Below the pieces are notes generated by a model. That model had not been told where the DNA came from. It ran no database searches and worked only from the letters and a program-made list of their open reading frames with translations. Shown in pieces: positions 13,609 to 64,000 of a stretch of 64,000 nucleotides of DNA; position 1 is the first letter of the stretch, and the number at the start of each line of letters is the position of its first letter. The translations under genes were made by a program, and so were the position numbers. The stretch comes from Okamejei kenojei (taxonomy: Eukaryota). The stretch spans positions 36,704,001 through 36,768,000 of the forward strand of contig CM069153.1 of assembly GCA_035221665.1 (NCBI GenBank), given 5' to 3'.

Positions 13609-16410
13609 CTGCAGCCACAGGTTAAGGACTACAAATTTTAAAGTTTGTGCTGAATTCCAAGTCGATGATCTAACGTTTAAAATCGAACATTTCAGTTTGG
13701 AAGCATTTCCCCAAGTCATTACTTTACCAGGATACCACAAGTTCAGAAACAACTTTAGAAGATGGGTCAGTATCACAGGCACACACGTCAAATGACCACA
13801 GCAACCTAACTGATAAGCTACAAGAATGATTGTATAACCATTGAATAGGTTATAAGAGTTGGGTGACGAAGGCAATATTGTACATGTAACAAATTCAGAA
13901 ATTGCACCTTGAGGGGTGGCGAAAACATATCCATCTTAAACCAAAGTTTTAACTTCATGAAACAAAATAAAGTCCAGCTATTACAAGATTAAATTAACGG
14001 GATTAGTTGAAGATGCAGGTCCAAATCAGAAATGAGTATCAGCACATCCCTCTTCAGTTAAAAAGATAATTTGTGCTGAAGGCTCATTTACACCAATCAA
14101 ATTTCCTGTAAGGATCCTTTGGGCCAACTACAGACATGCTAACCATTTGGTCACAGAGTCCCCAGATAAACGAGCAGCAGCGACAACATCCTGAGGAATT
14201 GGACCTCTTCCAGGTCACACCCAGAAACGAGGCTGCAAATGAAGTTGCACAATTACAAGTGGGGTCTGTTTCAATACTAGCGGCGATTTGTTGGAGGAAA
14301 TCTTTCTAATTAATCAAAAAATGATTCACTTTAGCTAGGGTTTATTGCAAAACAGCATGATTAAATTGGATAACTGAAATATTTAAAAAAAGAGACAGTG
14401 TTGGGATAACTCGGAGGGTCAGGCAGCTTCCTTGGAGAACATGGACAGGCAACATTTCGGGTTGGGAACCTCTTCAGACTTCTCCACGGATGCTGCCTGA
14501 ATCGTTAAGTTGGTCCAGCAGTTTGCGTCTTTAAAATTTCCACGTTTTTACATTGTTGTAATATACTGCCAAAACCTCTTTCTATTTTGCGTGTCATTTG
14601 AGTGATACAACACAGATCTAAGAGATTCAAGGCATTTGAAAGTACATCTATTGCAAGGACGTGGCAGTGGCTCCTGATGTTGGTGAATTCCAACACAACA
14701 ATGCAAAGCAAATAATAAGAAACTTCAAGCTGACAAAACCGATGCCATGTCCACAGCTTAGCCCCAGCCGGTGTATAGTCAGATTTACACAGAGCACAGG
14801 AGAAACCATTTAGCCGAGTCAGCTACTTACAAACTTCTTTCACCTACCCAACTCTCTCTTGATAACATCCAGTGAATTGGCCTCCACTGCCTTCCGTCGC
14901 AGAGAATTCCACAGATTCACAACTCTCTGGGTGAACAAATTTTTCCTCATCTCAGACCAAAATGGCCTACCCCTTATTCTTACACTGTGACCCCTGGTTC
15001 TGGACTCTCGCAACATTGGGAATGTTTTTCCTGCATCTAGCCTGTCCAATCCCTTAAGAATCTTATATGTTTCTATGAGATATCCTCTCATCTAAATTCC
15101 AGTGAATATAAGCCCAGTCGATCCATTATTTCATATGTCAGTCCCGCCATCCCAGAAATTAACCTGGTGAACCTACGCTGCACTCTCTCAATAGCAAGAA
15201 TGTCCCTCCTCAAATTAGGAGACCAAAACTGCACACAATACTCTAGGTGTGATCTCAGCAGGGTGCTCTCGCTATGCAGGCCAACATGCCATTTACTTTC
15301 TTCACTGCCTGCTGTACCTGCATGCATACTTTCAGTGATGGATGTATAAGGACACCCAAGTCATGTTGCACCCCTTTTCCTAATCGGACACCATTCAGAT
15401 AATAATCTGCATTCTTGTTCTTGCCACCAAAGCCTTGCGGTGCCCCACTAGTCACTGCCTGCCATTTTGAAAAGGACCTGTTCATTTCTATTTGCTTCCT
15501 GTCTGCCAACCAGCTCTCTAATCAGGCCAATACCCTATCCCAATACCAAGTGCTTCATTTTTGCCCACTAATCTCTTGTGTGGGATCTTGTCAAAGGCTT
15601 TTTGAAAGTCCAGATACACCACATTCACTGGCTCTCCCTTCTCCATTCTACTTGTTGCATCCTCAAAAAGTTCCAGAAGATTAGCCAAGCATGATTTCCT
15701 CTTCAAAAATCCATGCTGACTGATCGATCCTGTCGCTGCAATTACATCTTTAATAATCTTAATAATCGACTGAAGCATCTGCCCCACTACCGATGTCAGG
15801 TTAACTGGCCTATAATTCCATGTTTTCTCTCTCCCTTCTTCTTTACAAAGTGGAGTTACATTAGCTATCCTCCAGTCCACATGAACTGATCCAGAGTCTA
15901 TAGAATTTTGAAAAAGGATTCCCAATGCGTCCACGATGTCTCAGGCCACCTCCTTGAGTACTCTAGGATGCAGCCCACCAGGCCCTAGGGATTTATCTGC
16001 TCTCAGTCCCAACAGTTAACCTAACACCATTTCCTGACTAATGTGGATTTCCTTCAGTTCCTCCCTCCCACTAGATCCTCAGTCCCCTAGTATTTTTATC
16101 ATGAAGAAGCATTTGATTTTACTTCTCTTTTTAACTTGGCTCAAATTCTAAATAAACTATGTATCTGAAAATTGTGACGATTCCACTGCAACAAGCGCGA
16201 GTTGAAATTCACTTGCTCTTTTGTGCATTACTCAAAGAATCCAAGATTTGCATTTGCTGTTCTATTTTATAGGACATAGTGCAGCAAGTATAAGTTGGCT
16301 CGGATAATTAAAGTGGCCATAATTAATAAATTCAGATTGCAAGCAACTTTGACCTTGACTAACCATATCCAGAAAAGGACTTGGTTTCAAATCTCACAGG
16401 AAAAAGATAC
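13609..16410 (-). other. LLGL2: U12-type (minor spliceosome) GT-AG intron of LLGL2
   Basis: 5' splice site GTATCTTT (U12 consensus RTATCCTT); branch site TCCTTAAC at 13621-13628 followed by only 12 nt to the exon; no polypyrimidine tract. Confidence 0.9.
14840..16095 (-). mobile_element. CR1-type LINE fragment inside the U12 intron
   Basis: DWRIANVTPL…NYRPVNLTS…QHGF…VYLDFQKAFDKIPH; LEYCVQFWSP. Confidence 0.92.
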
Positions 16411-18925: not shown

Positions 18926-20974
18926 TGTTGCGGCGAATGGACTAACGGAGCCGGCGCTATGGGGGTGCTGAAAGCGGCCCGGACGGTGTGCAGGGCAGTG
19001 CTGCTCCCCACCATCATCACCACGATGATCCAAAAGGGCATGCTGGCCGAGGTGGACGCGCCGCGGGGCCACACTTATGGAGCCCGCAGCCGGTCCCAAA
19101 GCGGCTCCAGCTCTAGCTGTGGGCAGCTCTGGAAGTGGTGGGGGGGGGGGCGTGTTAGGGTTACACATTTTCCTGTCAGTGGAAGATGCCTTAGCCTTTC
19201 CCCAGCCTGGCACTGCCCCAGTCCCACTATGACCATGACCCGCACTTTGCACAGTGGCGGTCAGTGGGGTTCAGTAAATGGGGGAACCCACAGGAACTAC
19301 CCCATTAATTAGGCTGGTTCTGGAGCCGGAACTCTGCGGCAGCCTCGTTCAAAATACACACTCACAATTATATTCATTATATTATTTTGATATAATATAA
19401 TGATATATGCTTACAGTCATATGTAATATATGGTTTAAATAGATTGCAACACAGAAATAGGCTGCCCATGGGGTAATATGGGCATTGGACACTAGATGGT
19501 GCTTACCTTTTTCAATCTAATTTTCTAATTAGTTTATTTAATTAATGTGCAACTTTGGGCACTGACGAGTTATGACTTCCTTAATCAATTATATTTTATC
19601 TAAATCTGTCCAAAATTTCATGTAGTTCCCAGACTTGGGTCACGAAAGTTGATTTCTAGACACATTTTGATGCTCGGCCCACAGCCTAAATGTAACACCA
19701 TCATTGACTTAACATTCCGGTTACTTCCAAGTCAAAAGCAGACGGCCAGGAGCCAGTCAAGCAGCTGTCAGATCTGGTCTGATAAACCTAAGCTTGCTCA
19801 GGTCATGCAGCGGCTCTACTATTAGTGTGCTGTTACTGTGTAATTGTTAAATCAAGAGATGTTGGAAATTCCCTCACCAACATAATTTGCTGCAAAAACT
19901 TTGCAAACTGGACACCTTTCTTCATTCCAACATCAATGTCCCATGTACATTCCAGTTGCAAGATTCCAACATGACCAGGCACATTGCTATTTGTGCAATA
20001 CGTCTCTGGCTGCATTCAAGAGATCCTACAATACCTTACTGGGCTATATTACTCTAGCTATTTGAGTGTCCTGTGTTTCAACACGTTTCTGGTGCCTTGC
20101 ACTCTGGTGAGGGTGCCATTAATCCAAGTCTACAGGTACATTTGCCATGTTCTCAAAAGCCAGGGGAATTTAGCGGACTGTTTTAACGTTCTGCATGTCT
20201 TCAGAATACAGCTCTTACATTAGACTTTCCATCGTTTGGAATATAATTGCTAAGAAAATTAAATCAAACCAGCATATGACAGTTAATTTCCTTGACAAGT
20301 AATCCTTATCTAGCTCTTGTGGCAATATGTTAAATAGTTTAAGTTTATTCTTGATGGACAAAATGCTACAACTTGACCAGTCTAGCATTCTTAAGAAATT
20401 TGAATGCCAAAATAAATTAGCTGCTTTGAGAAATCATTCCAAAACGAAAATTATCAAGACCAAGCAGATTAAAATACATTTTAATTAAAAGCCCAAATGA
20501 ACCTTTCTTGTAAGATGTTAGTATTGAAGATAAGTGTTTTGGTCTTATCGACCACAAAATAAAAGTGGAAATGAGTGACATTGGTCATAGTAATCACACA
20601 ATCAAAAGCAGACAGAGTCTAAATGACATTCACCTACCAGATCTTGCCTTTACCCCTCCCTCTCACTTATTTATAGTGATAATCTTCCCTTTACACTCTT
20701 TAGCCCGATAGTGTCTCAACCCAAAATGTCAATCATCCCTTTGCCTCCATGGATGCCGCCAGACCTACTGAGTTTTTCCAGCAGTTTATTTTTGCTTACG
20801 TTTTCAAACACTGGTTCGGAATTGGAATTCAACTGGGACAGGTTTGAGTGCAGCACTCACTAACTACAAGAAGCTTTTAACGAGGGTGACCCATTTTGGG
20901 GAACAAAGAATTCTACGGCAAATATCTATGACAAAACAAATATTGTAGATGCAAGGAATCTGAAAACAAGAGCA

Positions 20975-21240
20975 GCGTGTTGGCACAGTTGGTCAAGCTG
21001 CTGCCTCACAGCACCAGAACCCCGGATTCGATCCAGACCGAATGCTGCTTGTGTGGAGTTCGCACATTCTCCCTATCACCACATGGGCTTCCACCCACAT
21101 CCCAAAGACGAGCGTTTTTGTAGGTTAATTGGCCTCTAAAATTGGTCCAAATTTGTTAAGAGCGGATGAGACATAGAATAACAAAGAACTGGTGTGAATA
21201 AATGATCGCTGGTCAGCATGGAGCAGAAAGAATGCCGAAG
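20975..21240 (+). mobile_element. tRNA-derived SINE (HE1/V-SINE-like)
   Basis: tggcacag…gctgctgcctcacagc…ggattcgatcc…gtgtggagttcgcacattctccc…cccaaagac. Confidence 0.85.
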
Positions 21241-22595
21241 AGATTCATCAGGATTTGAGGACGAGTTATACAGCGAAGCTGAATAGGGTGGAGATTTTTT
21301 TTGAAATGTAGTCTGCAGTGGGTTGATCTCATTGAAGTTTACACAATTATAAGGGGCATGGATAAATTGAATGCTCAATCATTTTCCAAGGGTAATGGAA
21401 TCTAAAACTAGAGAACATAGGCTTAAGGTGAGAAGGGAGAGATTTAAGATCCTCAGTGACTTTTTCCCCATTCAGAGTGTAATCCATACTCAGAATGAAC
21501 GCAAGGGGAAATTATAGAAGTGGATACAATTATTATTTTCAAAAGATATTTGGACAGATACAAATTGGAAGGTTTGGGGTTAGCCTAGAATGCCAACTTC
21601 ATCAGCATGGACAAGTTGGACTGAACAGCCCGATTCCATACTATATAGCACTGACGGAATGTACAACAAAGAGGAGCTCTCGGATAGAGTGAGACAAAAT
21701 GTCTATCATAGTCTGTTCATTATTTTAGTCTATAATGAGCAGATTAAGAAGGAACCGCTGGAGATGGTGCATTAAAGCTTCCAGAAGACTTTTAAGCTGC
21801 CAGACAAGGGACTATTAAACAAGCTTGGGATACACTGTGTTGGAGTAAGGTACTGACAAGGATCACTGGTTTGCTTCATATCAGAACATTATAAAAATAG
21901 AGGTCATTCTTAAATTGGGAGGCATTGTACTTCACAAACGATATTAATGATTTGAATGTGGGAGATCATGTTGAACGTATCCAAGTAAATTGGCAGCAGC
22001 GTGGACTTCAAGGGAGATGCAATGAAACTATGGGGAATCAAATGGGCACGACAGTCGAGTATGATATTGAAAAATGCAAGGTTGACCACTTTGACATATA
22101 AAAGTAACATTTTTTCCAATTGTTCATCAAGTTCAGAGGAACCAGCAGCCTTGAATAAGAATCACTGAAGATGTAGATGTATAACATGCAGATACAGCAG
22201 CAATTGGGAAAGGAAAACTGTTAGTTGCAAGAGGATCCAAGTGCAAGATCTCCCTACACAAGGAAGGGAATACTTGAGTGCAGCAAATGTTTGCCAGATT
22301 GATTTCTGGGATGACAAATTTGAAAGATCACGATTATATAAATTGTGCTTTATTCTCCAGAATTACAAGAATGGGAAGTGATCTCTGAAACATACCAAGT
22401 TCTTATAGGGTTTGACAGGGCACGTGGTGTTTGGGGTTAAGTGATAAGTGCCGAGAACCAGGGGACATCATTTTAAAATAAGGGAGTGGCCATTGACAAA
22501 TAAGAAATTTATTCACCCAACAGGTCACAATTTCTGGAATTCTCCACCTAAAAAGGACTGTGAAGGTTCAGTTGCTGCGTGTATTCAAGACAAAT
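21240..22595 (+). mobile_element. Cluster of degenerate CR1 fragments
   Basis: Degenerate CR1 3' DNA motifs (gttgatctcattgaagtttac, aaactagagaacataggcttaaggtgag, ttattcacccaacagg…ctggaattctc). Confidence 0.7.
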
Positions 22596-22862
22596 AAAAA
22601 ACAAATTCTGGAAATCCACAGCATTGTCCAAATGTTGCCTCGCCTTTTGAACATTTCCACCATTCATTTTAATTTCATACTTCCAGCACATACAGCTTTT
22701 TTTTTGAGATATTATCAAGAGTCAAGGTCATAAAACGCAATTAAAGTGAGTCATCCATCACCTCCCCAGTTTACCTTGGACCACAATATTATTCTGATGA
22801 CGTCTAGCACAAGCGAGGAACAGCATTTCAGCTTTTCACAAAGCATGTAGTCACCCATTCGA

Positions 22863-23400
22863 CATAGTTCAACAGAACAGTACAGGAACAGGCCTTATGG
22901 CCCACAATGTCCGTACTAAAGAATATCAAGACTAACTTTCCTCTACCTGCACATAAAGCATCGCTCTCCATTTCCCGCACATCCACGAGCCAATCAAAAT
23001 GATTTCAAACAACCACTATCGTATCTGACTCCATCATCAGCCCCAGCAGTGTTTTCCAGGCACTCTCCACCCTCTGCACATTACCTTTAAGTTGCGCTCG
23101 TTACCTTAAAGCTATGTCCTGTAGTGTTTGATATTTATATCGTGGAAAAATATTTTGAATGTCTATCCTATCCAAGTCTTTCATAATTTTATATTTAACA
23201 ATTTTGTATACCTCTAGTCAGGCCTTCCCACAACTTGTGCCGTTCCACAGAAAACAACCCAAGTCTGTTTAACCTCCCCCTATAGCTAATACCTCTAAAT
23301 CCAGGCATCATTCTGGTAAACCTCCTCTGCACCTTTTCCAAAGCCTTCACATCCTTCCTGTATATGGGCAACCAGAACTACATACAATATTCCAATAATC
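22863..23400 (-). mobile_element. CR1 3' end
   Basis: acagtacaggaacaggcc…ccaggcatcattctggtaaacctcctctgcacc, reversed CR1 3' region. Confidence 0.8.
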
Positions 23401-23615
23401 ACCTCTATCTTTTCCTCATGGATCTGGTTCGGGCTTTTTCATTTTGTCTGCATCATTTTTTTGCTAACTGCCCATTCTTAAAATAATTCTGACCTTTGCA
23501 ACTTTGATCTGAGCCCTAACATAGACCTTATTTATGTTCTTTCCATTTCTTCCACACTCAACATAACACTTCCTACTTCTCGTGTTCCGATGAAGGATCC
23601 TCAACATGAAATGTT

Positions 23616-24330
23616 GACCAGCGAAGTTGGTCCTTACCCTTAATAACTTCTTGTTTGACTCCTCCCATTTCCTCCAAACACAAGGTTTAGCTATGCCTGC
23701 CTCTTTGTAGGGTATGTCGAACAATCCTTGTTCGCGACGCACCAGGGCCCCAACCCCGACCTCTACCTCTGCTACATCGACAATTACATTGGTGCTACCT
23801 CCTGCACCCACACACAACTGACTGAATCAACTTCGCCACTAACTTCCATCTGGCACTCAAATACACCTGGACCATTTCCGACACTTCCCTACCATTTCTT
23901 GACCTCACTATCTCCATCGCAGGTGAAAGACCTTTGACCGACATCCACTATAAACCCACCAACTCCCATGGCTATCTAGACTACACTTCTTCCCACCCTG
24001 CTTCCTGTAAGGACTCCATTCCCTATACCCAATTCCTCCGTCTATGCCGCATCTGCTCCCAGGATGAGGTGTTCCACACCAGGGCATCGGAAATGTTCTC
24101 ATTCTTCAGGGAACAGGAGTTCCCCTCCCCTACCATAGATGAGGCTCTCACCAGGGTCTCTTCAATACCCCGCAACACTGCTCTCTCTCCCCATCCCCCC
24201 CACTCGGAACAAGGACAGAATCCCCCTAGTCCTCACCTTCCACCCCACTAGCCGGCACATACAACAAATCGTCCTCCATCATTTTCGCCACCTCCAACGT
24301 GACCCCACCACTCGCCACATCTTCCCATCT

Positions 24331-24384
<54 letters not shown>

Positions 24385-25067
24385 TGTGTACTTTCCGCAA
24401 AGACCGCTTCCTCCGTAACTCCCTGGTCAATTCTTCCCTTCACTCCCGCACCACCCCCTCCCCGGGCACTTTCCCTTGCAACTGCTACACGTGTCGCTTT
24501 ACCTCCCCCGTCAACTCCATTCAAGGACCCAAGCAGTCGTTCCAAGTGCGACAGAGACTTACCTACACCTCCTCCAACCTCATCTATTGCATCCGCTGCT
24601 CTAGACGTCAGCTGATCTACATCGGTGAGACCAAGCGTGGGCTTGGCGATCGTTTCGCCGAACACCTCCGCTCAGTCCGCATTAACCAACCTGATCTCCC
24701 TGTGGCTCAGCACTTCAACTCCCCCTCCCATTCCGAATCCGACCTCTCTGTCCTGGGCCTCCTCCATGGCCAGAGTGAGCGCCACCGGCAACTGGAGGAG
24801 CAGCACCTCATATTCCACTTGGGCAGTCTGCATCCTGGTGGCCTGAACATTGACTTCTCCCAGTTCCAGTAGCCCTTGCTGTCTCTTCCCCTTCTCAACT
24901 CTCCCTCAGCCCTCTGGCTCCTCCTCTTCCTTTCTTCTTCCCGTCGCCCCCCCCCCCCCCCCCCCACATTAGTCGGAAGAAGGGTTTCGGCCCAAAACGT
25001 TACCCATTTCCTTCGCTCTATAGATGCTGCCGCACCCGCTGAGTTTCTCCAGCAATTTTGTCTACCT
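23616..25067 (+). mobile_element. 5'-truncated Penelope-like retroelement (RT fragment + GIY-YIG endonuclease + terminal repeat)
   Basis: RT motifs LVLTLNNFLFDSSHFLQTQGLAM and YIDN (YIDD decayed); DIHYKPT; GIY-YIG domain NLIYCIRCS…IYIGETKR…RFAEH…HF…GLN ending 24872; decayed hammerhead motif at ~24974; 10-bp TSD atgaaatgtt at 23606-23615 and 25068-25077; frameshifted. Confidence 0.92.
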
Positions 25068-25195
25068 ATGAAATGTTACCCAGTGTTGCGGTCTGACCTG
25101 CTGAATGCTTCCAGCATTCTCTGTTCAAGCAAAAGTCCAAGATTAGCACTCAAGAACACTGGTGCATGTTCTGGAAAATTAGCAAAATGACTAAC

Positions 25196-25270
25196 CTTAT
25201 TGAATTGAAACAAGTCCTGCTTGATACGTTCTCTGTGTAACTCATTCCCATGTCTTCGGAATCTCTTCAT
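25196..25270 (-). CDS. LLGL2: LLGL2 first coding exon (ATG at 25270; exon including 5' UTR 25196-25326)
   Basis: MKRFRRHGNELHRERIKQDLFQFNK, an LLGL2-type N-terminus (human [25 protein letters not shown]); donor GTTAGT; upstream acceptor tctttgtgcag at 25327-25328. Confidence 0.95.
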
Positions 25271-25766
25271 TGCTCTCACTCGATGGTGACAAAGCAGCCT
25301 CAACACAACAGCCAAGTGAGCAGCTTCTGCACAAAGAAGATATAAATGGTTGATTCACAAATGAACAGATGCCAACACTTGCCCTTTTTCCAGCCTCTGA
25401 CAGCAGGGTACTCTCAGTTAAACATGGAACATCAAGTCTTTTGTGAAGCTGTGCCTAACCAAGTTACACAGCTGGCCCACATTTAGTTGGCAATCATTAA
25501 CCTCCATGTTTACAAAGGCACAATTCAAACAGTGCTTCTTCCACATGACATTAGATATACAGAACCTCATTACAGCCCCATCAACATTGCTTAGTTACAG
25601 AACTGGGATTTCTAGATAGTTCCCTACTATTGATCTCTCCCAAAAATATATTCTGCTCAAAGATGTCGTTTCAGGATGGACTGCTGTTGCAGAAGGACAC
25701 AATTGGCTAGTTGGTTAATTGAATCCTCAAAATGATGTAAAGAATCTAGTAAATTATGTCCTCTTT

Positions 25767-25860
25767 CTGAACAAGGGTCTCGACCCGAAACATCGCATAT
25801 TCCTTCTCTCCATAGATGCTGCCTCACCCGCTGAGTTTCTCCAGCATTTTGTCTACCTTC
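25767..25860 (+). mobile_element. PLE terminal-repeat fragment
   Basis: ctgaacaagggtctcgacccgaaac…gatgctgcctcacccgctgagtttctccagcatttt. Confidence 0.8.
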
Positions 25861-25879: not shown

Positions 25880-26980
25880 GGTTTCCCTCTGCTGTCTTAG
25901 ATGGATCCTTCACACACATCTCATGTGCCCCACAGTTCATATCTTGTCCCCTCTCACCAGACAGAACAAGAATAGAGTTCCCCTCGTCCTTTCACTCCAT
26001 AAGCCTCCGCATTCAACATATTCTCCGACATTCCCACCGCCTTCAGCATGATCCCACCACTGGTCACATCTTCCTATCGCCACCGCTTTCTGCAGAGACT
26101 GTTCCCACTCCAACCTTCTTTCACCTCCCTTCCCATTCACACCACCCCTTCCCAGGTACTTTACCCTGCAATCACCTGTCCCTATACCGCCTCCCTGATG
26201 TCAATCCGGGAACCCCAGCGGTCCTTCCAGGTGAGACAGAGGTTCACGTGCACCTCCTCTAACCTCATCTACTACGTTGGGTACTGATATGGCCTCCTCT
26301 ACATCAGTGAGATTAAATGTAGAGAAGACAACCATTTTGAACACTTGTGCTCGGTCTGCCAATGCCTGCTGGATCTGCCAGCTGCTAACCATTTTAAATC
26401 CCCATACGGACCTCTTCCTCATTTCTAGGCCTCCTCAGTTGCCAGAGTGACGCCACACAAGCTGATCGAGGAACAGTACCTCATATTATACTTGGGTAGC
26501 TTAGAATCCAATGGTATGATCATTGAATTCTCCAATTTTAAGTAATTGACCTACAAATAACCCCTCTTCTCCCCTCCCCCCACCATTCTTTCTCCCCCTC
26601 ACTTCCTTGTGCCCCACGCAGAAGCGCACTCATTTCTACCTTTCTCCATCCCTCCCTCCCAGACACCCCACCATCTGCCCCCTTCCACCTACATTCATTT
26701 CTCTGGCTTCACAATTAACCGTCTTTTCTCCTTATTTCACACTTTTGATCTTTTCATCTCTGACTTTTGTTCAACCATCTTTCGATGACACCCCCTCCCT
26801 CCCCAAACATCTGTTTCCACCCATCACTTGCCAGACTTTGTCCCATTCCCACAGTTCTAACTTTTTCAGTCCACGTACCCCCCCCCCCCCCCCGGTTGAC
26901 CGTAACCCCCCCACCCCCCCCCCCCCCCCCCCCCACCACCACTTCTTAACAGTCTCAACCTGAAACATTGACTATCCATG
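25880..26980 (+). mobile_element. Older degenerate Penelope-like element 3' part
   Basis: Degenerate RQNKNRVPLVL, SFQVRQRFTCTSSNLIY and EEQYLI-like segments; pyrimidine-rich 3' region. Confidence 0.8.
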
Positions 26981-27559
26981 TTCTCGATCTAGACATCTTG
27001 CATGCCATGGGCCAATTAGGAATGAATGCATTTTTATTCCTAGTAACTTCAAAAGATATTGAACAGTTTACCTCAGAGATCCTTAGCAAATACTAGCCAT
27101 ATCAACTTGAGCAGTCATCATTTCCCTACCATCACAAATCAAAAATGTATCAGTCCCACAAGTTACAAGTCCTATGGCATTCAATAGAACTAACATCCAT
27201 GTATAGACCTCCTTCCTGACTTACAAAGTCAAATGGTGACTATCTACAACCAACAAAATGTATTTCAGTCTCAGTCCCCTCATTGTAAACAACAACTGAT
27301 TTCTAATTCCCTAGCTTCCCTCTCATCTTTAAATATCTGATGGACAGGTGCAATTTTCCAATACAAAGGAATTGTTCACGACTCGAGAGAACTTCATGGT
27401 AGCTTAGAGTCTGCAAAAATTCTAATCTGCCAGAGTGGAAATTACCTAGCTCTGAATATACAGCATTACTTAATGGCACTGAACTAAACTAATTATGTTC
27501 ATTTTGGTAATTCTCAAATTCCAATTCATTATTAATTTCCTTACATCCTGAATACTGTT

Positions 27560-42100: not shown

Positions 42101-44468
42101 TTAGACCATTTTAAAGTAATGTTGTAGAGTCCATTCTGTCATTTTGGCACAATACACTGATGAATTTGATAACAATTTAGGCCAAATTTGAATGTTTTAT
42201 CTTTGTTCCCAAATTTAATTTTGCACTGAACTGTACAATAGTTGCTAACATTTGTCCCAAATCACAGAGGAGAAATATTACACCAAATTATATTTCAAAT
42301 GGTGTAAAATTATCAGGGTATAATTCAGCATCGCAGTTTTCACCATCACTGGCTCTGACTTTTTATAGTCTTGTTGCCTGCCCTGGGAAAACTCACCATC
42401 CAATAGGCTGTGGAAGATTATTCTCCTCAGAATTTGTGCCAAAATGGAGATGTGCAAAAGTAAGAACAAGCTATTTCCACACTGAAGATATTCCCAATTA
42501 CAATATACTCTTTGTCCACATCAATATGCTAATATCTCAGAGTTGGCAGTCCTTCGGCAGCAGGATGAGGAATATAAGATCCACAATAAGACAATGCAAG
42601 AACAACTGTATGCATTTTTGATTGGGTAAAATGGCTAAGAGCTGGCAAGTGTCAGGTGTATAACTTAGAAATTATACTGCAAGACATTTATTGAGATAAT
42701 ATTCTCAAGGCAAGGAACCAGTTAAAAAGTTAACCTGATACTTAATTTGCTATATTTAGACCACAAGTTAAACAACAAGACTAAATCAGAAGCAAAATTA
42801 CCAAAAAACACTGGTTGCGTGGGTTAACAAGCCAGGTTGTTTTATGGGCCACGTACAGTCCAATAGTCAGATTATTTATTAGGTGGGTTTCAATAATGCT
42901 TTGCAGTGGGCCTGGGAAAGCTGTTTTTAGGAGATGGATTAGTAGTATGTCTGCAGCTTTTGATCAGGGATACAAGCTGTCAGTTAGCCTGGGCAAGAGG
43001 TGATATCAGCATGTTCCACAATCCTAATTGAGGTAAAAAGTTAATAATAGTTTGTTGTTCAGCCAAGCAGGAGCGGGGAAGTTTGTCCTCAGCAGTCCAG
43101 TGCCATGTAACAAAAGACAAGGGAGGGACAAGACAAGGGAGGGGAAATGGTCTGCCATATAAAATATGCTAATTTAACAAGAAAATAAATATTTTAGATA
43201 AGGACAATCTTCCAGTTGCATGTTTGAGGGATGCTTAGCAGGTATTCAATGCCAATATAGTCAAACCTTGACTATAGAACACAAAACCAAGTACTTGACA
43301 AGAGCAAGAGTAGTTGACCAGACATCCACTCAGGCCTAGTAACCCATATGCCTGTTAAATGCTGGTTTAGGTAGGCAAGGGTTACATTGTCTATAAAGCT
43401 AAAAATCACCTGCAGGTCAATCATTTAAAATCCAAGTAAAGAATCACAATAAAATCTATTGGTTTAAAGTTCAAATAACTTCAGTGAACAAGCAAATATA
43501 CAACTTAGCACACATTAAGAATACAAAAAAATGTCCAAATTAAATCGACATACACTTAAGGGGTTTAAATCATTTGTGCAATACTACCTTTATATTACTG
43601 AACATACACTTCAGGACGACAAGTTTGATTCCCACTCAGAAAATGGCTCTTCCCAACCTCTATCCTACAACCATGCTTCATTTTTGAACTCATCGGGCAT
43701 GTGCACCTGCACCCGTCACCTGGGAGCATTATAGATCCACTTAAGTCCATGTTTAGCTTCATGGACTGGCAGAGATTCGGCAGAGCAGATTGGCTGCAAA
43801 TTATACAATATTTCCTTTGTTCTAATGAAACCAAAGCAATGGAAACATTTCTAAAAACAGCATCTACAGACTGGACCCACATGCTTCCAGCATTCCATCT
43901 TTATTTCTGTAAACCATAAGGTAATCCACAGGGCACAAATTCTAGTTGCTCTCCAATAATCATGTACATTCATATGATATCAAGTCTTTTTTTGTAGTTC
44001 ACGATAATGTATACATCCAGCCTTAGCATTTTTTTTGAAATGCTCATCCAGCCCACTGTCACCCGAAGATGTGACCATTCTAAACACTTTCCTGGCTGCC
44101 CACTACTGTGTTCGGACTCCAGTACATCTGAATTCTGCGGCCATGACAACATGCACCAACTGCTGCTTATCTACCTATTGACCCCTGTTAACCAACAACT
44201 CGTTTTAAAAACAGAATTAATTGTAGGTGCAAATTTAAACTAGTAGGGCATAATGTAGGTCTGCAAGGAACAAAAAAAAAAATGGTAAGAGTCATTTTAT
44301 GATGACATTGAAATGACTTCAACAATAAAAAGGAAAACAAAAAGTTAAGTAGCCGCAGAGATAAAGCAAACATCGGTAGATCTTCACAATCCCAAAATAA
44401 TATGGTGGAAATAATCACCTAGTCAGGAAACATCTGTGGAGAAGGAAACAGTTAACATTTCATTAAGA

Positions 44469-44734
44469 TTGACACAAAATGCTGGAATAACACAGTGAGA
44501 CAGGCAACAGCTCTGGAGCGAAGGAATGTGTGATGTTTCAGGTCGAGACCCTTCTTCAGACTGAAGATCTTATTTTAAAGATATGCCCTCTAGTTCTAGA
44601 TTTGAAGTTTGAAGAAGGGTCTCGAACCAAAACTTTACCCATTGCTTCTCTCCAGAGATGCTGCCTGTCCCACTGAGTTCCTCCAGCATTTTGTGTCTAT
44701 CTTCGGTTTAAACCAGCACCTGCAGTTCCTTCCC
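44469..44734. mobile_element. Inverted pair of PLE terminal repeats with spacer and 15-bp TSD
   Basis: Minus copy ~44470-44561, plus copy ~44610-44734; TSD aacatttcatt(a/g)aga at 44454-44468 and 44735-44749. Confidence 0.82.
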
Positions 44735-47700
44735 AACATTTCATTGAGACGTCTCCTCAGATAATCGACCACTGACCTGAAATGCTGAGTAAAAGCTAAC
44801 AGTTGCCGCTGTGAATGATCAAATTAAAGCAAACATGTTGCAATGGAAAGGTAGCTTTAATTTATTGGAATCTTGCTTTCATTCCAGTAGGGTATAGGAA
44901 TATCCTACAATAAAGCTGAAGCCATATTTGATCTAGCAATATTTGCTTGCCCAGTGCTAGAGAATCACTAAAACTGCCCTGCTCTATCAATCAGTTATAT
45001 CACAACTTATTTCATCTCAACTTCAACTCTTACACATTTTCCCATTAACCCACAATTTCTTTATTGTCTTAGCCTTTATATTTAGTGATTGATCCTCCAC
45101 AGTTCACTACGACAGAATTCAATTTCACCGACATCAGAAGAATAAATTCTTCATTTCAGGGATACCATTCTCAAATTACTGACTAGCAAACCTCTTCAGA
45201 ATCGCGTGGAAGATCCTCTCTTATTGGATGAAAAGACACTTCCATCCCATTAGAGCATTGCAAATTGTGAGGCTACAGAAATTAAAGTTCTCCAGGCAAG
45301 ACGTCAGACACCCTATAAAGTTATAGCAACACACTTGATGTTTTAAGATAATGAAAGGAATTGGGGCATGGATTGATGCGTTTTTAAATGGAAGCGGATA
45401 TGGTGGGGGAAAAGTTCAATGGGAGTTTGGCGGTCTGAAGAACAGGGGAGATCAAACGTAAAACTCTTCTGGAAAGCAATAATGCCAGCACAATGAAGAA
45501 TTTCAAATCTAAGATGTATACACACCCATCCTGCAAAAATGGAAAGGATCCAAGACAGGTGACTGGTCGAGATATGATCTGCTTACTGAACTGCAGAGCA
45601 GGATTAAAAGGTCAAGTGGCCTACTGCTTTCCCAAAAAGATGTAGTAGGACCTTGTGTAAGAAAGAACTGCAGATGTTGGTTTAAATCAAAGGTAGACGC
45701 AAAATGTTGGAGTAACTCAACATCTCCAAGTAGCAACTCTGGCGAGGAGGAATGGGTTACGTTTTGGGTCGAGATCCTTCTTAGGACCATCCATCCTTCA
45801 GATAGTTTAAGATTTCATTTAAATGAAGGATGGAGGCAGTTAAGAAAATATTATTTTTTCTCTCACATCTCAAATGGACAAGTCAAATGGACACAGAACC
45901 TAGTGTTTTTTCCACCACCATAGACATTGGTCCACAAATATTTCACCAATTTTACTTCCCATTTTGTGACTAGCTCAACTATTACTTTTCTATTTTAACA
46001 AGGACAAAAATAATTGCTGTTGAAACCCTTGTAAACCAGGTTAAATATTCTCTGGGACAAAAGGGAAAAGATTCAACCGAACACAAATGGTAAACTTATC
46101 CAGGAAAAGAATGCAGGGCAATGTAATGAGCAGTCAACTGGAATTCGAATTGAATGTAGGACAATCTTATCAATTGCTCAATCAAGATTAATCATGAATC
46201 GATTTGCAGAGTTGTTAATTTACCATGTCTGTGTCATGGTTACCACAGATTGAGAAAAATAATGACTCACCAATTTCTCAGTGAGGCATAAAATTAGAGG
46301 CATTTCCTGCACCGAAAGTAGCAAAAACACTAATGTTTGCTACCAGTTATCGAGACGTAACCACATTTGTTAGTGTAACAACCCAACAATTTCAATAGTT
46401 ATACAACAGGATCTTTTTTTCACAAATACTGGCTACATTGCAGGTCCAAATGACAACACAGCAGATACATTCAATTTAAATGAAAAATTATGGAAGGTCT
46501 GTCCAGATTATTTATAGCCAATATCAAGTTCCTTAGAGTAAATATCACCAGCAACTTGTCCTGCGCACACCAACGCCTCTACTTCCATAGAAGGCTTAAA
46601 TAGTTCACCATGTCTCCAACAACACCAACTTCCACAGATGCGCCGTAGAAGCATTGTATCACAGCACGGTTTGGGAACAGCTCTTCAAGAGCTTTTCAAG
46701 AGAGAGTTAGTTAGATATAGCTCTTAGGGCTAACGGAATCAAGGGATGCAGGGAAAAAGTAAGGAACGGGGTACTGAGTTTGGATGATCAGCAATGATCA
46801 TATTGACAATAGTACCCCTGTGGATGAATGGCGGTGCTGGATTGAAATGGCCTACTCCTGCACCTAGTTTCTTTGTTTCTACAAAAACATCAAACTCATT
46901 GGAAACGCCTCAAACTATCTCTAATCTGGCTTTAACTGGCACTAAATCTTATTCCCTTTGTGCTATATCTGTACACTGTGGACGGCTCAATTGTACTCTT
47001 GTACAGTCTTTCCACTGACTAGATAGTATGCAAAAAAAAAAAAACTTTTCACTGTATCTCAGTACACATGATAATAAACTAAACTAAAGTGGGCCTCATT
47101 ACTGAAAGCAATTCTCTCCACCGACCCCATCACAGCAAGATACAGGAAGGCAGGTCCAATTTAAGCATTCTAGGGTCATTTGAAGCTTCCTTGCCATCAA
47201 ATGAAATCAGGTAACCAATACAAAATTCTGCCTGAAATCATTCAAACTTAATAGGGCACACTGAATCGATACTGACAATTAAATCATTAAATTCCACAGT
47301 TTAAAATTTTTTTTTTTTTTAAATCAGCCATTTACTGGAAATTTCTAATCAGCTGGCCTCTAGTTGGAGAAATGTTTTTAAATTGTGCATTATGGTTTGT
47401 ATTACATCAGTACTCCGTTAGGAAAAGCAGATTTTGCTACTTATGCTGGCCTTTAAATGTAGACAAATGCTCTTAAAGTAAAAATCTTCAATGAAACAGC
47501 CCATTGACAATAACCAAGGCAAAGCAGATTCTGTACATTCTGATCAGGTATCATGAAGGAACATACAAATGCTGCAGTTGTAACTGGTCAACACGGTACA
47601 ACAACCCATACACGGAGTTTTAAAGTGTTCCATATAAACAAAATATTTGGCCCAAACGCATTGTTATTTTAAAAGAGGCATTTGATTTAAACCAAAAGGA

Positions 47701-48742: not shown

Positions 48743-48905
48743 TGCTGGTTTACACTGAAGATAGACACAAATGCTGGAGTAGGTCAGGCAGCATCGCTAG
48801 AGAAAAATAATAGGTGACGTTTTAGGTTAGTCTGAAGAAGGGTCTCGACCCAAAACGTCACCTATTCCTTCTCTCCAGAGATGCTACCTGACCCACTGAG
48901 TTACT
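48743..48905. mobile_element. Inverted pair of PLE terminal repeats
   Basis: aggtcaggcagcatc…taggtgacgtttt followed by tctgaagaagggtctcgacccaaaacgtcaccta…gatgctacctgacc. Confidence 0.8.
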
Positions 48906-49729: not shown

Positions 49730-50324
49730 ATGTTTAATTGTTACCTTGTTTCTCCGATATTAATTAAGCCCCATTTTCTAGAGGTCCTTACCCAACTTTG
49801 CCCATTCCTTTCATTTTTAATATCCATTGACATTTTTACAGTGTATGCAAGTTCTATCAAAATCAATGTATTCACCTTTTTGAGCAGCAGTCTTTCACTG
49901 TGAGATCCTGAAAAAAAAAATCAGTCCTCTGTTTTAACACTAGACTTGCTACTTTGCATGCCCTACTTTTCAATTTAACATGACCCTTAACTAGAAATAA
50001 AGGAGCACAAGGGATGAAAATGACCTAGTTCAGTTTCTATTCAGTCCAGGAACAGAAATATCTACACCTATGCAGGCAGCTTTTTAGGCACATTTCGCTT
50101 ATACCTACAAACATTCTCCAGAAACTGCAATGCTCTATTATTTATGCTATAAAAAATAGATGCATCAGGTGTTAGTAAGCTAGATGTTTGAATTAACAAT
50201 CTGGAGAGTCCAATTCAAATCTCACCACGGCATTTGTGGAATTTAAATTAAGTTAGTAATCTAGATTTTTAACAAGACCCAAACATAGAACACCAGAACT
50301 GAGCCCACTCAGTCATTCATCGTG

Positions 50325-50457
50325 TGTACGAAAGGAACTGCCGATTCTGGTTTACACCAAAAATAGACACAGAATGCTGGAGTAACTCAGCGGGACAGAC
50401 AGCATCTCTCCAGGGAAGGAATGGGTGACGTTTCGGCTAAAGACCCTTCTGCAGACT
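50325..50457 (-). mobile_element. PLE terminal-repeat fragment
   Basis: aaggaactg…gctggagtaactcagcggg…gtgacgtttcggctaaagacccttctgcagact. Confidence 0.8.
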
Positions 50458-53829: not shown

Positions 53830-54680
53830 GTTGATGGGACTAGAATATAAAAGCAGGTATGTAATGCTGAGGCTTTATCAGGTGCTGGCAAGGCAACATG
53901 CGAAATATTGTGAACAGGTTTGAGCCCCATATTTTTTTACTTTAGTTTATTATTGTCATGTGTACTTTGGTACAGTGAAAAGCTTGTTTGCATGTTGTTC
54001 AGTCAAAAACGACCATACATGAATATAATCAAGCCGTCCGCAGTGCACACAGAAATAATAAATATCTGAGGAAATGTTTAAGAAGGAACCACAGAAAAAG
54101 GTCTGCAGTCTGAAGAAGGGTCTCAACCCGAAGCATCACCTACTCATTTTCTCCATAGATGCTGCCTCACCCGCTGAGTTTCTCCAGCATTTTTTGTCTA
54201 ATATCTGAGGAAGGATGTCTTGGCTTTGGAGAGACCCTAGAAGAGGCTTATGAGAATGATTCCAGGGATGATTGCATCAAAGTACATGGAGCTTTTGAAG
54301 GCTCTGGGCCTCCATTCGCTGGAGTTTAGAAAGGTGAGAGTGGAAAGGCCTAGATAGAGTGGACATGGAAAGGATGTGTCCAGTAATGGAGTCTAGAACC
54401 AAAAGGCACAGCCTCTGAATAATAGGACCTACCATCAAAATGGAGATGAGGAGGTTTTTCTTTACCTAGAAGGTGGTGAATTTGTGGAATTAATTGTCAC
54501 AGACAGCTGAGGGGACCAAGACATTGGCTATTTTTAAGGTTGAGATTGATGGGTTCTCGGTTAGGAAGGGCAAAGGTTCATGGGGCAAAGGCAGGGAAAT
54601 GGGTTAAGCGAGAAAGATTGATCAGCTTTGATCAAATGGCAGAGCAGACTCAATAGCCTAATTCTACTCCTGTGTCTTTA
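53830..54680 (+). mobile_element. CR1 3' fragment with nested insertions
   Basis: gggactagaatataaaagcagg…ctgggcctccattcgctggagtttaga…cctaattctactcctgtgtctt. Confidence 0.8.
54074..54199 (+). mobile_element. PLE terminal-repeat insertion with short inverted 5' part
   Basis: ctgaagaagggtctcaacccgaagc at 54110; 13-bp TSD aatatctgaggaa at 54061-54073 and 54200-54212. Confidence 0.85.
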
Positions 54681-56045: not shown

Positions 56046-56252
56046 TAATGTGGCTCTCAACCACAACAACAACAACTTGTGCCTGCAATGTGCTGGGGTT
56101 AGGTATCCAAAAACTCTTGATCGAAAGCAGTTAAACAATAGCGTTGAGATTGACCAAGTTTTGCACAAAGAAAACAAAGACATTGTACTTAGCTAATACG
56201 ATTTTTTTTTAAATGTTTCCAGAAGCAGAAATGACTAGGTTGCTCCTGTATG

Positions 56253-56450
56253 TTTAAGAAGGAACTGCAGATGCTGGAAATTCGAAGGTAGACAAAAATG
56301 CTGGAGAAACTCAGCGGGCGAGGCAGCATCTATGGAGCGAAGGAAATAGGCAACGTTTCGGGTCGAGACGCTTCTTCAGGGTCTCGACCCGAAACGTTGC
56401 CTATTTCCTTCGCTCCATAGATGCTGCCTCACCCGCTGAGTTTCTCCAGA
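56253..56450. mobile_element. Inverted pair of PLE terminal repeats (69-bp arms) with 13-bp TSD
   Basis: Arms 56301-56369 and 56381-56449, one mismatch; TSD ttgct(c/t)ctgtatg at 56240-56252 and 56451-56463. Confidence 0.88.
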
Positions 56451-58505: not shown

Positions 58506-58611
58506 TTCAATACAGAAATTGATTTGATACCTGGATATTGGAAATCAAAGGGATGTGGGAAAAGTGCAGTAAAACGAGTTGACTTAGATCAGCAAAGATA
58601 TTGATTTTTGA

Positions 58612-58890
58612 TGGTACACAAAAGGCTGGAGAAACTCAGCAGGTGCAGCAGCATCTAAGGAGCAAAGGAGATAGGCGACGTTTCGGGTCGAGACCCTTCT
58701 TCAGACTAGTCAGGGATCAGGGAAACGAGAGATATAGACGGTGATGTGGAGAAATAAAGAACAATGAATGAAAGATACGCAAAAAAGTATCGATGATGAA
58801 GGGAACACGCCATTGTAAGCTGTTTGTAGTGTGAAAATGAGAAGTTAGTGCGACTAGGGTGGGGGAGAGATAGAGAGAGAGGGAATGCCT
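58612..58890 (-). mobile_element. Penelope-like 3' terminal fragment (solo pseudo-LTR)
   Basis: Near-identical to 62672-63000 of the GIY-YIG element; contains an intact hammerhead core. Confidence 0.88.
58677..58704 (-). ncRNA. Minimal type I hammerhead ribozyme core (PLE-associated)
   Basis: Reverse complement CTGAAGA-A-GGGT-CTCG-ACCC-GAAA-CG-TC: CUGANGA box, stem II with tetraloop, GAAA box, palindromic ACGU stem III, GUC cleavage triplet; stem I weak. Confidence 0.7.
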
Positions 58891-59039
58891 CTCTCGATGG
58901 AGCAGTCTTTAAGGGAAAAAATGGCCATTTCTTGCTCCAATTTCTTAGTTCCTAATTACTTATTTTCTATTTATTTTTGAGACAAGCCTAAAGTACTGCT
59001 TGAATGTTTACAATTGTATCCTAAGAGATAAGGAAATTA

Positions 59040-59852: not shown

Positions 59853-60308
59853 AGCTTAGTTCAATTTAGAGATACAGCAAGAAAACAACCCTTCAGCGTG
59901 TCCACCGCGACAATCAATCATTCAAACTCGCTGGAGAAGGGTCTCGACCCGAAACGTCGCCTATTTCTTCGCTCCGTAGATGCTGCCTCACCCGCTGAGT
60001 TTCTCCAGCATTTTTGTCTACCTTCGATTTTTTTTCCAGCGTCTGCAGTTCGTTCTTAAACATTCAAACTCGCTGGTGCTGTTACCCCACTTTCTCATCC
60101 ACTTCCTGCACACAAGGGCCAATTTTACAGAGCCCAATTAACCTACAATCCCGCACATCTTTTGTGATATGGGAGGAAACCGGAGCACCCGAAGGAAACC
60201 ACACAGTCACAAGTGGAATGTGCAAACTCCACACAGACAGCACCTACAGTCGGGATCGAACTCGGGACTCTGCTGCTGTGAGGGAGCAGCTCCATCAGCT
60301 GCGCAACT
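59853..60308 (-). mobile_element. tRNA-derived SINE interrupted by a PLE repeat
   Basis: gggaggaaaccggagcaccc…tgcaaactccacacagacagcacc…gatcgaactcggg…ctgtgaggg. Confidence 0.85.
59935..60060 (+). mobile_element. 126-bp PLE terminal-repeat insertion nested in a SINE
   Basis: agaagggtctcgacccgaaacgtc…; perfect 16-bp TSD cattcaaactcgctgg at 59919-59934 and 60061-60076. Confidence 0.9.
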
Positions 60309-60625: not shown

Positions 60626-60925
60626 TCAAAATTCACCCTGGTTTAGAAAAGTGGTAAAAAGAATCAAAGGGGCAGGTAGGAACAACAATAGGTCATATAC
60701 AACAGGAGTTTGAATCGTACTAATAGGATAATTCCCCCGGGAGCTGGCATAGCCTCGGTGGGCCAGGTGGCCTCCTTCCGTGTTATTAGTATAGCAGACT
60801 TGTTGGGATATGGGATTAATGCAGGAAGTCATGAAGGGCAGAAGGGTCTCCTGCTCCTTTCGTTGCCGCGAATTCTCTCTCACACACTAGCTGAGGCCGT
60901 TGGAGCGGCTGGAGCCCAGTATATT

Positions 60926-61296
60926 GGTCAACACTGGCACGGCCACGGCTTTGCCCCCCCCCCCCCCCCCCCCGGTCAACACTGGCCCGGCCACGGCTTT
61001 GCCCCCCCCCCCCCCCCCCGGTCAACACTGGCCCGGCCACGGCTTTGCCCCCCCCCCCCGGTCAACACTGGCCCGGCCACGGCTTTGCCCCCCCCCCCGG
61101 TCAACACTGGCCCGGCCACGGCTTTGCCCCCCCCCCCCGGTCAACACTGGCCCGGCCACGGCTTTGCCTGACGCTGCCCCCCCCCCGGGGTCAACACTGG
61201 CCCGGCCCCACGGCTCTGCCCCCCCCGGGGTCAACACTGGCCCGGCCACGGCTTTGCCCCCCCCCGGTCAGCGCCGGCCCGGCCACGGCTTTGCCC
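60926..61296. repeat. GC-rich minisatellite, 9 copies of ggtcaacactggcccggccacggctttg + poly-C
   Basis: 28-bp core repeated 9 times with variable C-run spacers. Confidence 0.95.
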
Positions 61297-61600
61297 GCCT
61301 TCTGCCCCCAGACCGGACCGCCCGCCCCTTTAACCAAAGACACTAGAGGAGCTCTCTTTGCCTTTAACGGAATTAATGCCGGCAGACCCAGAATGCTGTG
61401 CAGGACTGGGCCGCTGTGTCCCAGCCCGACGATGGGCTTCCCTGGCAACGGGAGGCCCTCGGCCTCGGCCTCGACCCTCCCGGCCGGGCCCGCGGTCGCC
61501 GCGCTCTTCGCTCTCGTATTCTCTATTTACCTGCAGACCCTGCACCGTGCGGTGCCGGGCGGCGATTCCGGTCAGTGCCAGCGGGAGCGTGTTTTTGGGT
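61297..61600 (+). promoter_or_regulatory. CpG island / promoter and exon 1 region of the TMEM260-family gene
   Basis: Dense CpG, GC boxes (cccgccc), CCTTTAA motifs upstream of the ATG. Confidence 0.65.
61432..61570 (+). CDS. TMEM260: TMEM260-family (protein O-mannosyltransferase, DUF2723) first coding exon
   Basis: MGFPGNGRPSASASTLPAGPAVAALFALVFSIYLQTLHRAVPGGDSG: hydrophobic TM1 followed by VPGGDSG as in TMEM260 (…PSVPGGDSGELIT…); Kozak acgATGg; phase-1 donor G|GTCAGT; alternative in-frame ATG at 61393; exon 2 not seen in window; ortholog versus paralog unresolved. Confidence 0.85.
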
Positions 61601-62671: not shown

Positions 62672-64000
62672 GGGTACACAAAAGGCTGGAGAAACTCAGC
62701 GGGTGCAGCAGCATCTAAGGAGCGAAGGAGATAGGCAATGTTTCGGGTTGAGACCCTTCTTCAGACTGGTCAGGGATCAGGGAAACAAGAGATATAGACG
62801 GTGATGTGGAGAGATATGCAAAAAAGTATCAATGATAAAGGGAACAAGCCTCGATTCTTCAGCATCTGCAGTTCCTTCTTTAACACTTTGTCTACTCCAC
62901 TGCGATATCTCCTCAAGCCATTGTAAGCTGTTTGTGGTGTGAAAATGAGAAGCTGGTGCGACTAGGGTGGGGGAGGGAGATAGAGAGAGAGGGAATGCCA
63001 GGGCCCGAGGGCTGAGGGAGAGGTGGGAAGGGGAGGAGACAGCAAGGGTTAACAGAATTGAGAAAATTCAATGTTCAAGCCCAAAGGATGCAGGCTCCCC
63101 AAGCGGAATATGAGGTGCTGTTCCTCCAACTTGCGGTGTTGCTCACTCTGGCCGTGGAGGAGGCCCAGGACCGAGAGGTCGGATACGGAATGGGAGGGGG
63201 TTGAAGTGCTGAGCCACCGGGAGGTCGGGTTGGTTAATGCGGACCGAGCGGAGGTGTTCGGCGAAACGATCGCCAAGCCTCCGCTTGGTCTCACCGATAT
63301 AGATCATCTGGCATCTGGAGCAGCGGATGCAGTAGATGAGGTTGGAGGAGGTGCAGGTGAACCTCTGTCGGACCTGGAAGGACTGCTTGGGTCCCTGAAA
63401 GGAGTGGAGGGGGGAGGTGAAGGGACAAGTGTAGCATTTCTTGCGGTTGCAAGGGAAAGTGCCCGGGGAAGGGGTTAGAGCGGGAGGGAAGGGAAGAATT
63501 GACAAGGGAGTTGCGGATGGAGCGGTCTTTGCGGAAGGCAGACGGGGGGAGATGGGAAGATGTGGCGAGTGGAGGGGTCACGTTGGAGGCGGCGAAACTG
63601 GCGGAGGACTATGTGTTGTATTTGCCGCTGGTGGGGTGAAAGATGAGGACCATGGGGACTCTGCCCTGTTTGCGAATGGGGGAATGGGGAGAGAGGGCAG
63701 TGTTGCGGGGTATGGAGCAGGCCCTGGGGGAGGGGAATCCCCATTCTCTGAAAAATGAGGCCATTTGTGATGACCTGGTGTGGAACACCTCATCCTGGGA
63801 GCAGATGCGGTGTAGTTGGAGGAATTGGGAATAGGGGATGGAGTCCTTACAGGAAGTAGGGTGGGAGGAAGAGTAGTCCAGGTAGCTGTGGGAGTCAGTT
63901 AGTTTGTAGTGGATGTCGGTCAGGAGTGTATCACCTGCAATAGAGATGGTGAGGTCAAGAAATGGTAGGGAAATGTCGGAAATGGTCCAAGTGTATTTGA
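62672..64000 (-). mobile_element. Penelope-like retroelement of the same family, running off the window end
   Basis: ORFs 63143-63505 and 63049-63294 give CNRKKCYTC…NLIYCIRCSRCQMIYIGETKRRLGDRFAEH…GLNIEFSQF; DIHYK/DSHSYLDYSSSHP upstream; terminal repeat with hammerhead-like motif at ~62737-62764; frameshifts present. Confidence 0.92.

Follow-up and report, generated by a model that had tools for sequence, protein, structure and literature searches.

Minimal type I hammerhead ribozymes are known from the terminal repeats (pLTRs) of Penelope-like elements (PLEs), where the diagnostic pattern comprises an extra base after A9, a G10.1-C11.1 pair and a palindrome at 15.2-16.2 (Cervera & de la Pena 2014, PMC4209133). 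They were reported in the Xena, Poseidon and Neptune elements of fishes (PMC4209133). Hammerheads in the pLTRs of fish PLEs, their occurrence as dispersed single copies and pLTR-derived retrozymes, including those of one chondrichthyan, are already in print. The function of the PLE hammerhead has been called unclear (PMC8557442). Such motifs need either a dimer or the PLE protein for cleavage (PMC4209133, PMC11167929): S. mansoni monomers were inactive and dimers weak (PMC4209133), one of nine Xenopus dimers cleaved (Li et al. 2026 preprint 10.64898/2026.07.22.740005), and the motif of an anole PLE was cleaved only with the PLE protein, hammerhead mutants being without effect on insertion (Frangieh 2024, PMC11167929). 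A cleave-and-circularise model predicts ends at the cleavage site (PMC4209133). Reverse transcription of PLEs begins internally, at two sites a tail-length apart (PMC11167929).

The locus described here lies in a stretch of 64,000 nucleotides of the skate Okamejei kenojei (GenBank assembly GCA_035221665.1, contig CM069153.1, positions 36,704,001 to 36,768,000, forward strand), which is called the window below. An initial annotation of this stretch had proposed a minimal hammerhead in a high-copy PLE terminal repeat. As the link between the ribozyme and PLEs is known, the finding as first written adds a skate family to the list.

Focal motif and insertion

The focal motif at 58677-58704 was read directly on the minus strand as CUGAAGA, one extra A, GGGU-CUCG-ACCC, GAAA and CGUC. 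Positions are numbered from C3 (58704), which is +1, so that the predicted cleavage falls between +28 and +29.

58677..58704, minus strand: minimal type I hammerhead core, with the C3-A9 box, the extra A, a 4-bp stem II with a 4-nt loop, G12-A15.1, the palindromic ACGU and predicted cleavage after C17 (58677)
58705..58707, minus strand: AGU, forming the 5' strand of stem I; the 5' ends of short family copies have their hotspot at -3
58674..58676, minus strand: 3' strand of stem I, two pairs in register
58613..58889, minus strand: whole focal insertion, a 5'-truncated PLE 3' UTR/pLTR of the subfamily of element B, without a tail

The CUGANGA and GAAA boxes and the NUH site are present, the palindrome at 15.2-16.2 is ACGU, and stem III is absent in the monomer. 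The annotation was right in calling every core nucleotide intact and stem I weak (U-G, G-C, then A.C); the focal copy had itself been picked for its intact core. A scan for the core pattern with at most one mismatch gave 14 matches against 1.47 expected, a number reached by none of 100 shuffles, and 10 of the 14 are family copies.

The focal copy had been taken for a unit of about 130 bp. It measures 277 bp, has no tail and reaches 185 nt upstream of the core. Since it aligns closely with the 3' UTR and pLTR of the GIY-YIG element B and lacks a tail, it is a solo, ordinary 5'-truncated 3' end of a Neptune/Nematis-type PLE. A candidate target duplication of 7 bp (58608-58614 / 58894-58900, one mismatch) was discarded, being at chance level and matched by 61% of null pairs. 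In the whole-genome runs X6 (organism B) and X10 (organism D) the two flanks show one and the same contig depth (18.2 and 7.36, respectively) and the alignment stops at 58609; this shared flank depth suggests an empty site in these runs, which none of the listed joints shows directly.

Autonomous elements and host gene

Two GIY-YIG open reading frames had been recognised in the window, and a third remnant with a broken motif (25964-26544) had been overlooked. The elements are:

23857..25067, plus strand: element A, 5'-truncated, with frameshifted RT thumb, GIY-YIG (24387-24872) and 3' UTR
24974-25001, plus strand: motif of element A, core broken
62673..64000, minus strand: element B, with frameshifted RT thumb, Cys linker, GIY-YIG and 3' UTR, continuing beyond the window
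62764-62737, minus strand: hammerhead motif of element B, palindrome broken
25964..26985, plus strand: element C, an old GIY-YIG remnant with a pLTR lacking its CUGANGA box

The repeat had been placed directly 3' of both GIY-YIG frames; it does lie downstream of them, but the core is 101 nt past the stop in element A and about 284 nt past it in element B. The GIY-YIG domain follows the RT at the C-terminus (thumb fragments, then endonuclease) and matched Pfam with E 1.6e-4 and 22.4 bits against a cutoff of 22.6. Its homologs are chondrichthyan RT-EN proteins with a CX4CXXC linker, the best named one being from the skate Rhinoraja longicauda (71%) and the other named ones from rays, sharks and a gar. 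Element B carries the linker CNRKKCYTC, which fits CX2-5CXXC, and element A has a 3-residue gap there. As the CX2-5CXXC linker is assigned to Neptune and Nematis (Craig et al. 2021, PMC8557442), the family is of the Neptune/Nematis type. The 3' UTR of element B also holds a nested insertion of about 69 bp (62850-62917) with a 6-bp duplication, made of an inverted tail and about 30 nt absent from other family copies; in full-length elements these 30 nt may come next after the tail.

The host gene in the window is the following:

9802-25260, minus strand: exons of an LLGL gene, best match LLGL2, with the first coding exon near 25.2 kb

Element A runs antisense to this gene and comes to within about 100 nt of the splice donor of its first coding exon. 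A GC-rich block at 60900-61600 has a possible splice donor near 61531 (about 61.5 kb), and a G-run tandem repeat of about 39 bp lies just inside the presumed intron. The block may be a non-coding first LLGL exon; the focal copy would then lie in sense orientation within intron 1.

Family copies in the window

All 15 coordinates at which the repeat had been said to recur fall on family copies, within about 4 nt. In total 29 pLTR segments, some of them weak, were found in the window, and 19 have an alignable core. A density of one ribozyme per about 4 kb had been put forward; 18 of the 19 aligned copies, however, have a broken core or stem II. The core is intact in three, and the focal copy alone joins an intact core to a full 4-bp stem II. 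The palindrome is broken in 9/19, and core losses concentrate at CpG sites (G12 is A in 8/19, G16.2 differs in 7 and C17 is U in 8). Losses of this kind represent dead copies decaying neutrally. When the window copies are compared at non-CpG sites, conservation is only slightly higher in the core than in the flank (0.914 vs 0.846, p 0.018). In the whole-genome runs, variant sites at 7% or above numbered 0/28 in 58680-58707 (2/31 with CpG sites included) against 24/167 in the flanks, the latter counted after removal of six focal-private sites. Variant shares were also tried as a discriminator of core and flank and gave no separation (p 0.03 without CpG sites, 0.38 with them). The family is very abundant: 59,000-82,000 contigs at 80% or more were found in each of three whole-genome runs, a contig count and not a copy number.

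Conservation of the hammerhead fold

The annotation had made better conservation of the core than of the flanking repeat a test of its reading, and across families this proved to be so. The metagenome set consisted of the best 80 of 322 confirmed loci, which encode relatives at roughly 30-64% identity. Between the focal copy and five metagenome representatives, 10-11/11 core bases agreed, against 5/12 in stem-loop II, 4-9/30 in the upstream flank and 9-14/40 in the downstream flank. Strict scoring was applied to the 57 of those 80 loci with at least 250 nt after the match, and the minimal motif was found on the sense strand of 12, with none antisense, none within the ORF and 0.02 in shuffled sequence. 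A relaxed scan of all 80 loci gave 52 matches, most of them in one large family and in several others whose stem II sequences differ. In both the skate and the metagenome loci the motif is located in the pLTR, 3' of the RT-GIY-YIG ORF. A U4C variant of the core (CCGANGA) recurs in the related loci L004, L011, L035, L045, L049 and L057.

Covariation was assessed in an ungapped alignment of eight sequences (seven distinct), three skate copies and five loci with a 13-nt spacer; these rows are few, were chosen for motif fit and represent about four families. In register, 93.9% of cells pair, against 5-51% in slid controls, and five of the seven pairs change on both sides, stem I included. G10.1-C11.1 is GC in 7/7 distinct rows, and the unpaired base between 9 and 10.1 is present. 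The alignments indicate that the fold is conserved under selection, since distant PLEs keep the core and show compensatory changes in both stems while their flanks are unrelated.

A chance resemblance, with the conserved block serving only for protein binding or as a promoter element, would fit the narrow lead of core over flank within the window, the low predicted stem probabilities of the focal monomer given below, and the Rfam covariance models, which returned no hammerhead among 16 matches at E up to 10. This last result is to be expected of a motif without stem III. Such a reading is scarcely credible, as it leaves aside that covariation in both stems goes together with retention of the catalytic positions, the extra A, G10.1-C11.1 and the palindrome, and that in a homologous PLE motif either C3G or G8C abolishes cleavage (PMC11167929). 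The Rfam matches obtained in the window were rejected as chance matches of hairpin type on inverted arms. Scans of metagenome and viral contigs for the exact motif gave no matches, and a protein scan of viral contigs gave no relative among 50 pattern matches. On sequence criteria the annotation's minimal hammerhead of type I in a PLE pLTR is supported across families, the PLE being of the Neptune/Nematis type, and the focal motif itself is very probably a PLE hammerhead.

Predicted folding and cleavage

With ViennaRNA the focal monomer forms stem II with a probability of 0.01-0.07 and stem I with 0.0. When two focal motifs were cofolded, the minimum (-20.7 kcal/mol) was better than a partial double hammerhead (-12.7 kcal/mol, stem I not scored). 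Among copies on the same strand, the closest one whose core is intact lies at a distance of 2.3 kb, and its stem II contains a mismatch. The focal copy is predicted to cleave poorly if at all, and is most likely silent.

Whole-genome runs also contain tandem joints from 58707 to 58670-58676, same-strand duplications of about 32-38 nt that place two cores head to tail; the 37-nt joint occurs in 3-10 contigs per run. By their arrangement these duplications would be natural candidates for an active double hammerhead.

Short copies and their lineage

The motif had been described as the centre of a repeat of about 130 bp, whereas in the short copies it forms the 5' end, and the units measure about 95 nt, or about 130 nt when tailed. 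Their 3' ends fall near +90, or near +130 with a tail of about 38 nt, and the metagenome families have two matching 3' ends, at +87-97 or at +120 and beyond. The units are:

59931..60062, plus strand: short copy with tail, 16-bp target duplication and 5' junction inside the CUGA box
56247..56449, both strands: head-to-head short arms with a one-sided tail and 13-bp duplication (one mismatch)
44465..44733, both strands: head-to-head pair, both arms from -3/-4, with a one-sided tail and 15-bp duplication (one mismatch)
54070..54200, plus strand: short copy from -4, preceded by an inverted tail piece, with an 11-13-bp duplication
25766..25860, plus strand: tailless short copy with a 10-bp duplication and 5' junction inside the CUGA box
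48743..48905, both strands: head-to-head pair, plus arm from -3/-4
50323..50457, minus strand: short copy with tail, from -3
45654..45787, minus strand: short copy with tail, from -2
14378..14530, both strands: head-to-head pair, minus arm from -3

Target duplications of 10-16 bp were found at five of 11 units tested, the null being 4% for 10 bp or more. Head-to-head pairs occur at four loci (14.4, 44.5, 48.8 and 56.3 kb), and a fifth unit (54.1 kb) has the inverted tail piece at its 5' end. In the pair at 44465..44733 the arms are separated by an unrelated spacer of about 43 bp (44563-44605). Target duplications, an optional tail and inverted arms are described PLE anatomy (PMC8557442, PMC3846280). 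The anatomy of the short copies is consistent with nicking and extension on both strands and with two internal RT start sites. Tailed copies (59975-60045 and others) are predicted to fold with their tail paired to the body, through AGAUGCUG and its complement, which would make this pairing a candidate stem-loop for RT initiation.

The annotation had seen here a non-autonomous mini-retroelement. In its sharper form this reading makes the 95/130-nt unit an independent element, retrozyme- or SINE-like, with its own source loci and the PLE protein supplied in trans. It would explain the discrete ends with their target duplications, and pLTR-derived retrozymes do occur in one chondrichthyan (Li et al. 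2026). The label 'short' is mildly clustered on the tree (14/500 shuffles were as low), and head-to-tail joints of the 95-nt unit, from 58707 to 58613, were found in all four runs (15, 37, 14 and 3 contigs; run X18 is probably DNA). Against it, the 10 short copies, a group named beforehand, were rejected as a single clade (p-AU 0.0024), in a tree of 89 columns with 13/16 forks open. The copies at 56379, 59931 and 25767 share diagnostic bases with two long copies, the focal one and B, which bears the endonuclease. Furthermore, the short copies of the window include no head-to-tail tandem of intact units, their ends lie off the cleavage site, and the focal copy is itself long. An independent mini-element is therefore unlikely. 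Given the rejected clade and the shared diagnostic bases, the short copies are probably repeated by-products of the autonomous family. The 58707-to-58613 joints may be template jumps or small retrozyme-like arrays; there may be a minority retrozyme-like class, since these joints occur in 3-37 contigs per run.

5' ends of the copies

For the 5'-end count, six long, three ambiguous old (12.4, 20.7 and 29.9 kb) and one tail-only segment were subtracted from the 29 pLTR rows, leaving 19. Ten of these begin within -5..+5 and nine at +7..+45; the binomial p for the pile-up at -5..+5 is 0.0016, for an interval set after inspection of the data. None of the 19 begins at +27..+30, around the cleavage site at +29, the nearest start being +31. 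Six window copies begin at one AGU (-3/-4), and (C/U)CAGU around -3 is what we take to be an initiator-like context. In the metagenome families 4/17 non-full 5' ends lie at -14..-6 and the others scatter.

In X1, X6 and X10 the top listed 5'-side loose ends are at 58705-58707 (442/703/1497 in X1); they have long tails and low agreement (0.31-0.36). Tandem head-to-tail joints break exactly at 58707, where depth falls 2.4- to 5-fold. The pile of loose ends and the depth drop are confounded at this point, as the consensus there begins with the upstream sequence of another subfamily; the pile includes long copies of other subfamilies, and base 58708 is private to the focal copy. A weak cap-like signature, an additional C on the strand of the cDNA, for which there is a LINE-1 precedent (PMC4859970), was seen at six of the eight listed joints at 58707, but also at two of three at 58702.

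The fold was conserved and could itself define the ends if hammerhead cleavage and ligation delimited the mobile unit, with circular monomers and rolling-circle-like propagation (PMC4209133). One skate segment from +31 and one metagenome segment from +30 would suit such a process, as would the tandem joints that go back 32-38 nt. This origin is very improbable, considering the empty interval at +27..+30, the copies that read through an intact cleavage site, the listed joints, among which none lands on 58677 from 58707, and the anole data, in which no RNA reads ended at the site (PMC11167929).

Alternatively, instead of the end of an RNA, the 5' pile-up could mark a hotspot at which ordinary 5' truncation stalls or joins, or it could be an artefact that arises because subfamilies diverge upstream. 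Microhomologies inside CUG at the junctions of 25767 and 59931 point this way, subfamily homology also stops near -4, and the window shows no excess of cap-derived G, which precedes the AGU start in one of six copies. Yet those six copies share the AGU start with unrelated upstream flanks, and in three of them (44465-44733 twice, and 54110) the bounding target duplication takes in the junction. A structure-induced stall would moreover be expected 3' of the fold, not after the RT has passed it. We regard truncation or divergence as improbable, slightly more so than the independent mini-element. As a further source of short copies, the AG in front of the core was considered as a 3' splice site (pyrimidine tract and YAG, as in D. 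virilis); this was rejected because the short copies retain the AG and have unrelated flanks, and because the AG is missing from the metagenome families.

An RNA end is the reading to which we incline, if only just: position -3 may well be the 5' end of the PLE RNA. In the Penelope element of D. virilis transcription starts 46 bp before a 75-bp intron whose end is at helix I (PMC4209133, PMC2377424); this is further upstream than the start proposed here, so that a start near the core would not be universal and the motif is not cap-proximal there.

Proposed origin of the short copies

Taken together, a PLE hammerhead fold, a truncated focal end predicted to cleave poorly if at all and short copies made from the uncleaved 5' end of an RNA form the account that we favour with moderate confidence. 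The PLE RNA would begin at about A(-3). Priming on the first pLTR would then give a cDNA of only 95-130 nt from uncleaved RNA, and priming on the downstream pLTR of a read-through RNA would give long, 5'-truncated copies such as the focal one. With uncleaved templates, cleavage would be no part of integration; should it occur, it would remove a 5' leader of about 31 nt. An RNA start at about -3 would also account for stem I keeping two to three pairs.

A more tentative proposal, which we hold to be possible but doubtful, is that PLE mRNA starts three bases before the core and that the ribozyme acts as a cap-proximal, protein-licensed self-decapping switch for translation or RNA fate, not for excision of the template. 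If so, the genome would contain, in fossil form, a vast 5'-RACE library of transcripts left uncleaved. No more than a lead in this direction is the link to translation initiation that has been made for type I hammerheads located in the 5' UTRs of viruses (PMC13725137).

Comparison with known systems

A literature search, with Repbase/Dfam and some supplements outside its range, found no paper on the skate family or on the 5'-end hotspot of the motif.

Animal non-LTR retrozymes (Li et al. 2026 preprint) share with this family the derivation from a pLTR, the type I hammerhead and the dispersed monomers. By definition they are tandem repeats in which two or more units carry a complete motif, whereas the window copies are solo or head-to-head; no tandem repeat with two or more complete hammerhead units was found in the window, and tandem joints are rare in the whole-genome runs.

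The PLE min-HHRs (PMC4209133) have in common with the skate motif the type I core, the extra base 9/10.1, G10.1-C11.1, a palindrome without loop 3, the pLTR location and the mostly dispersed single copies. Stem II has 4 bp and stem I 2 bp here, against 7-8 and 4-5 in S. mansoni, and helix I of D. virilis likewise has 2 bp (PMC4209133). In the available text of that paper chondrichthyans are not named and no hotspot of 5' boundaries is described.

With the EN+ PLEs of Neptune and Nematis (PMC8557442) the family shares the RT, the CX2-5CXXC linker, the C-terminal GIY-YIG with CCHH-type residues, 5' truncation, inverted 5'-truncated arms, the optional 30-40-bp tail and the pLTR hammerhead. It is known in the window from partial copies and is assigned to the pair, not to one clade.

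PAc, a Poseidon element of Anolis (PMC11167929), resembles the family in having two 3' ends, separated by the length of a tail and lying downstream of the hammerhead, and in its uncleaved RNA template, and nicking and extension on both strands would give head-to-head arms. It differs in clade, Penelope/Poseidon elements being without the Cys linker (PMC8557442), and in its ORF, which starts in stem II (PMC11167929), where the skate family has no ATG. The boundary pattern could matter in this respect: in a very abundant skate family the ends fall before the core, not at the cleavage site, and this would extend the in vitro anole result to the genomic insertions of another clade.
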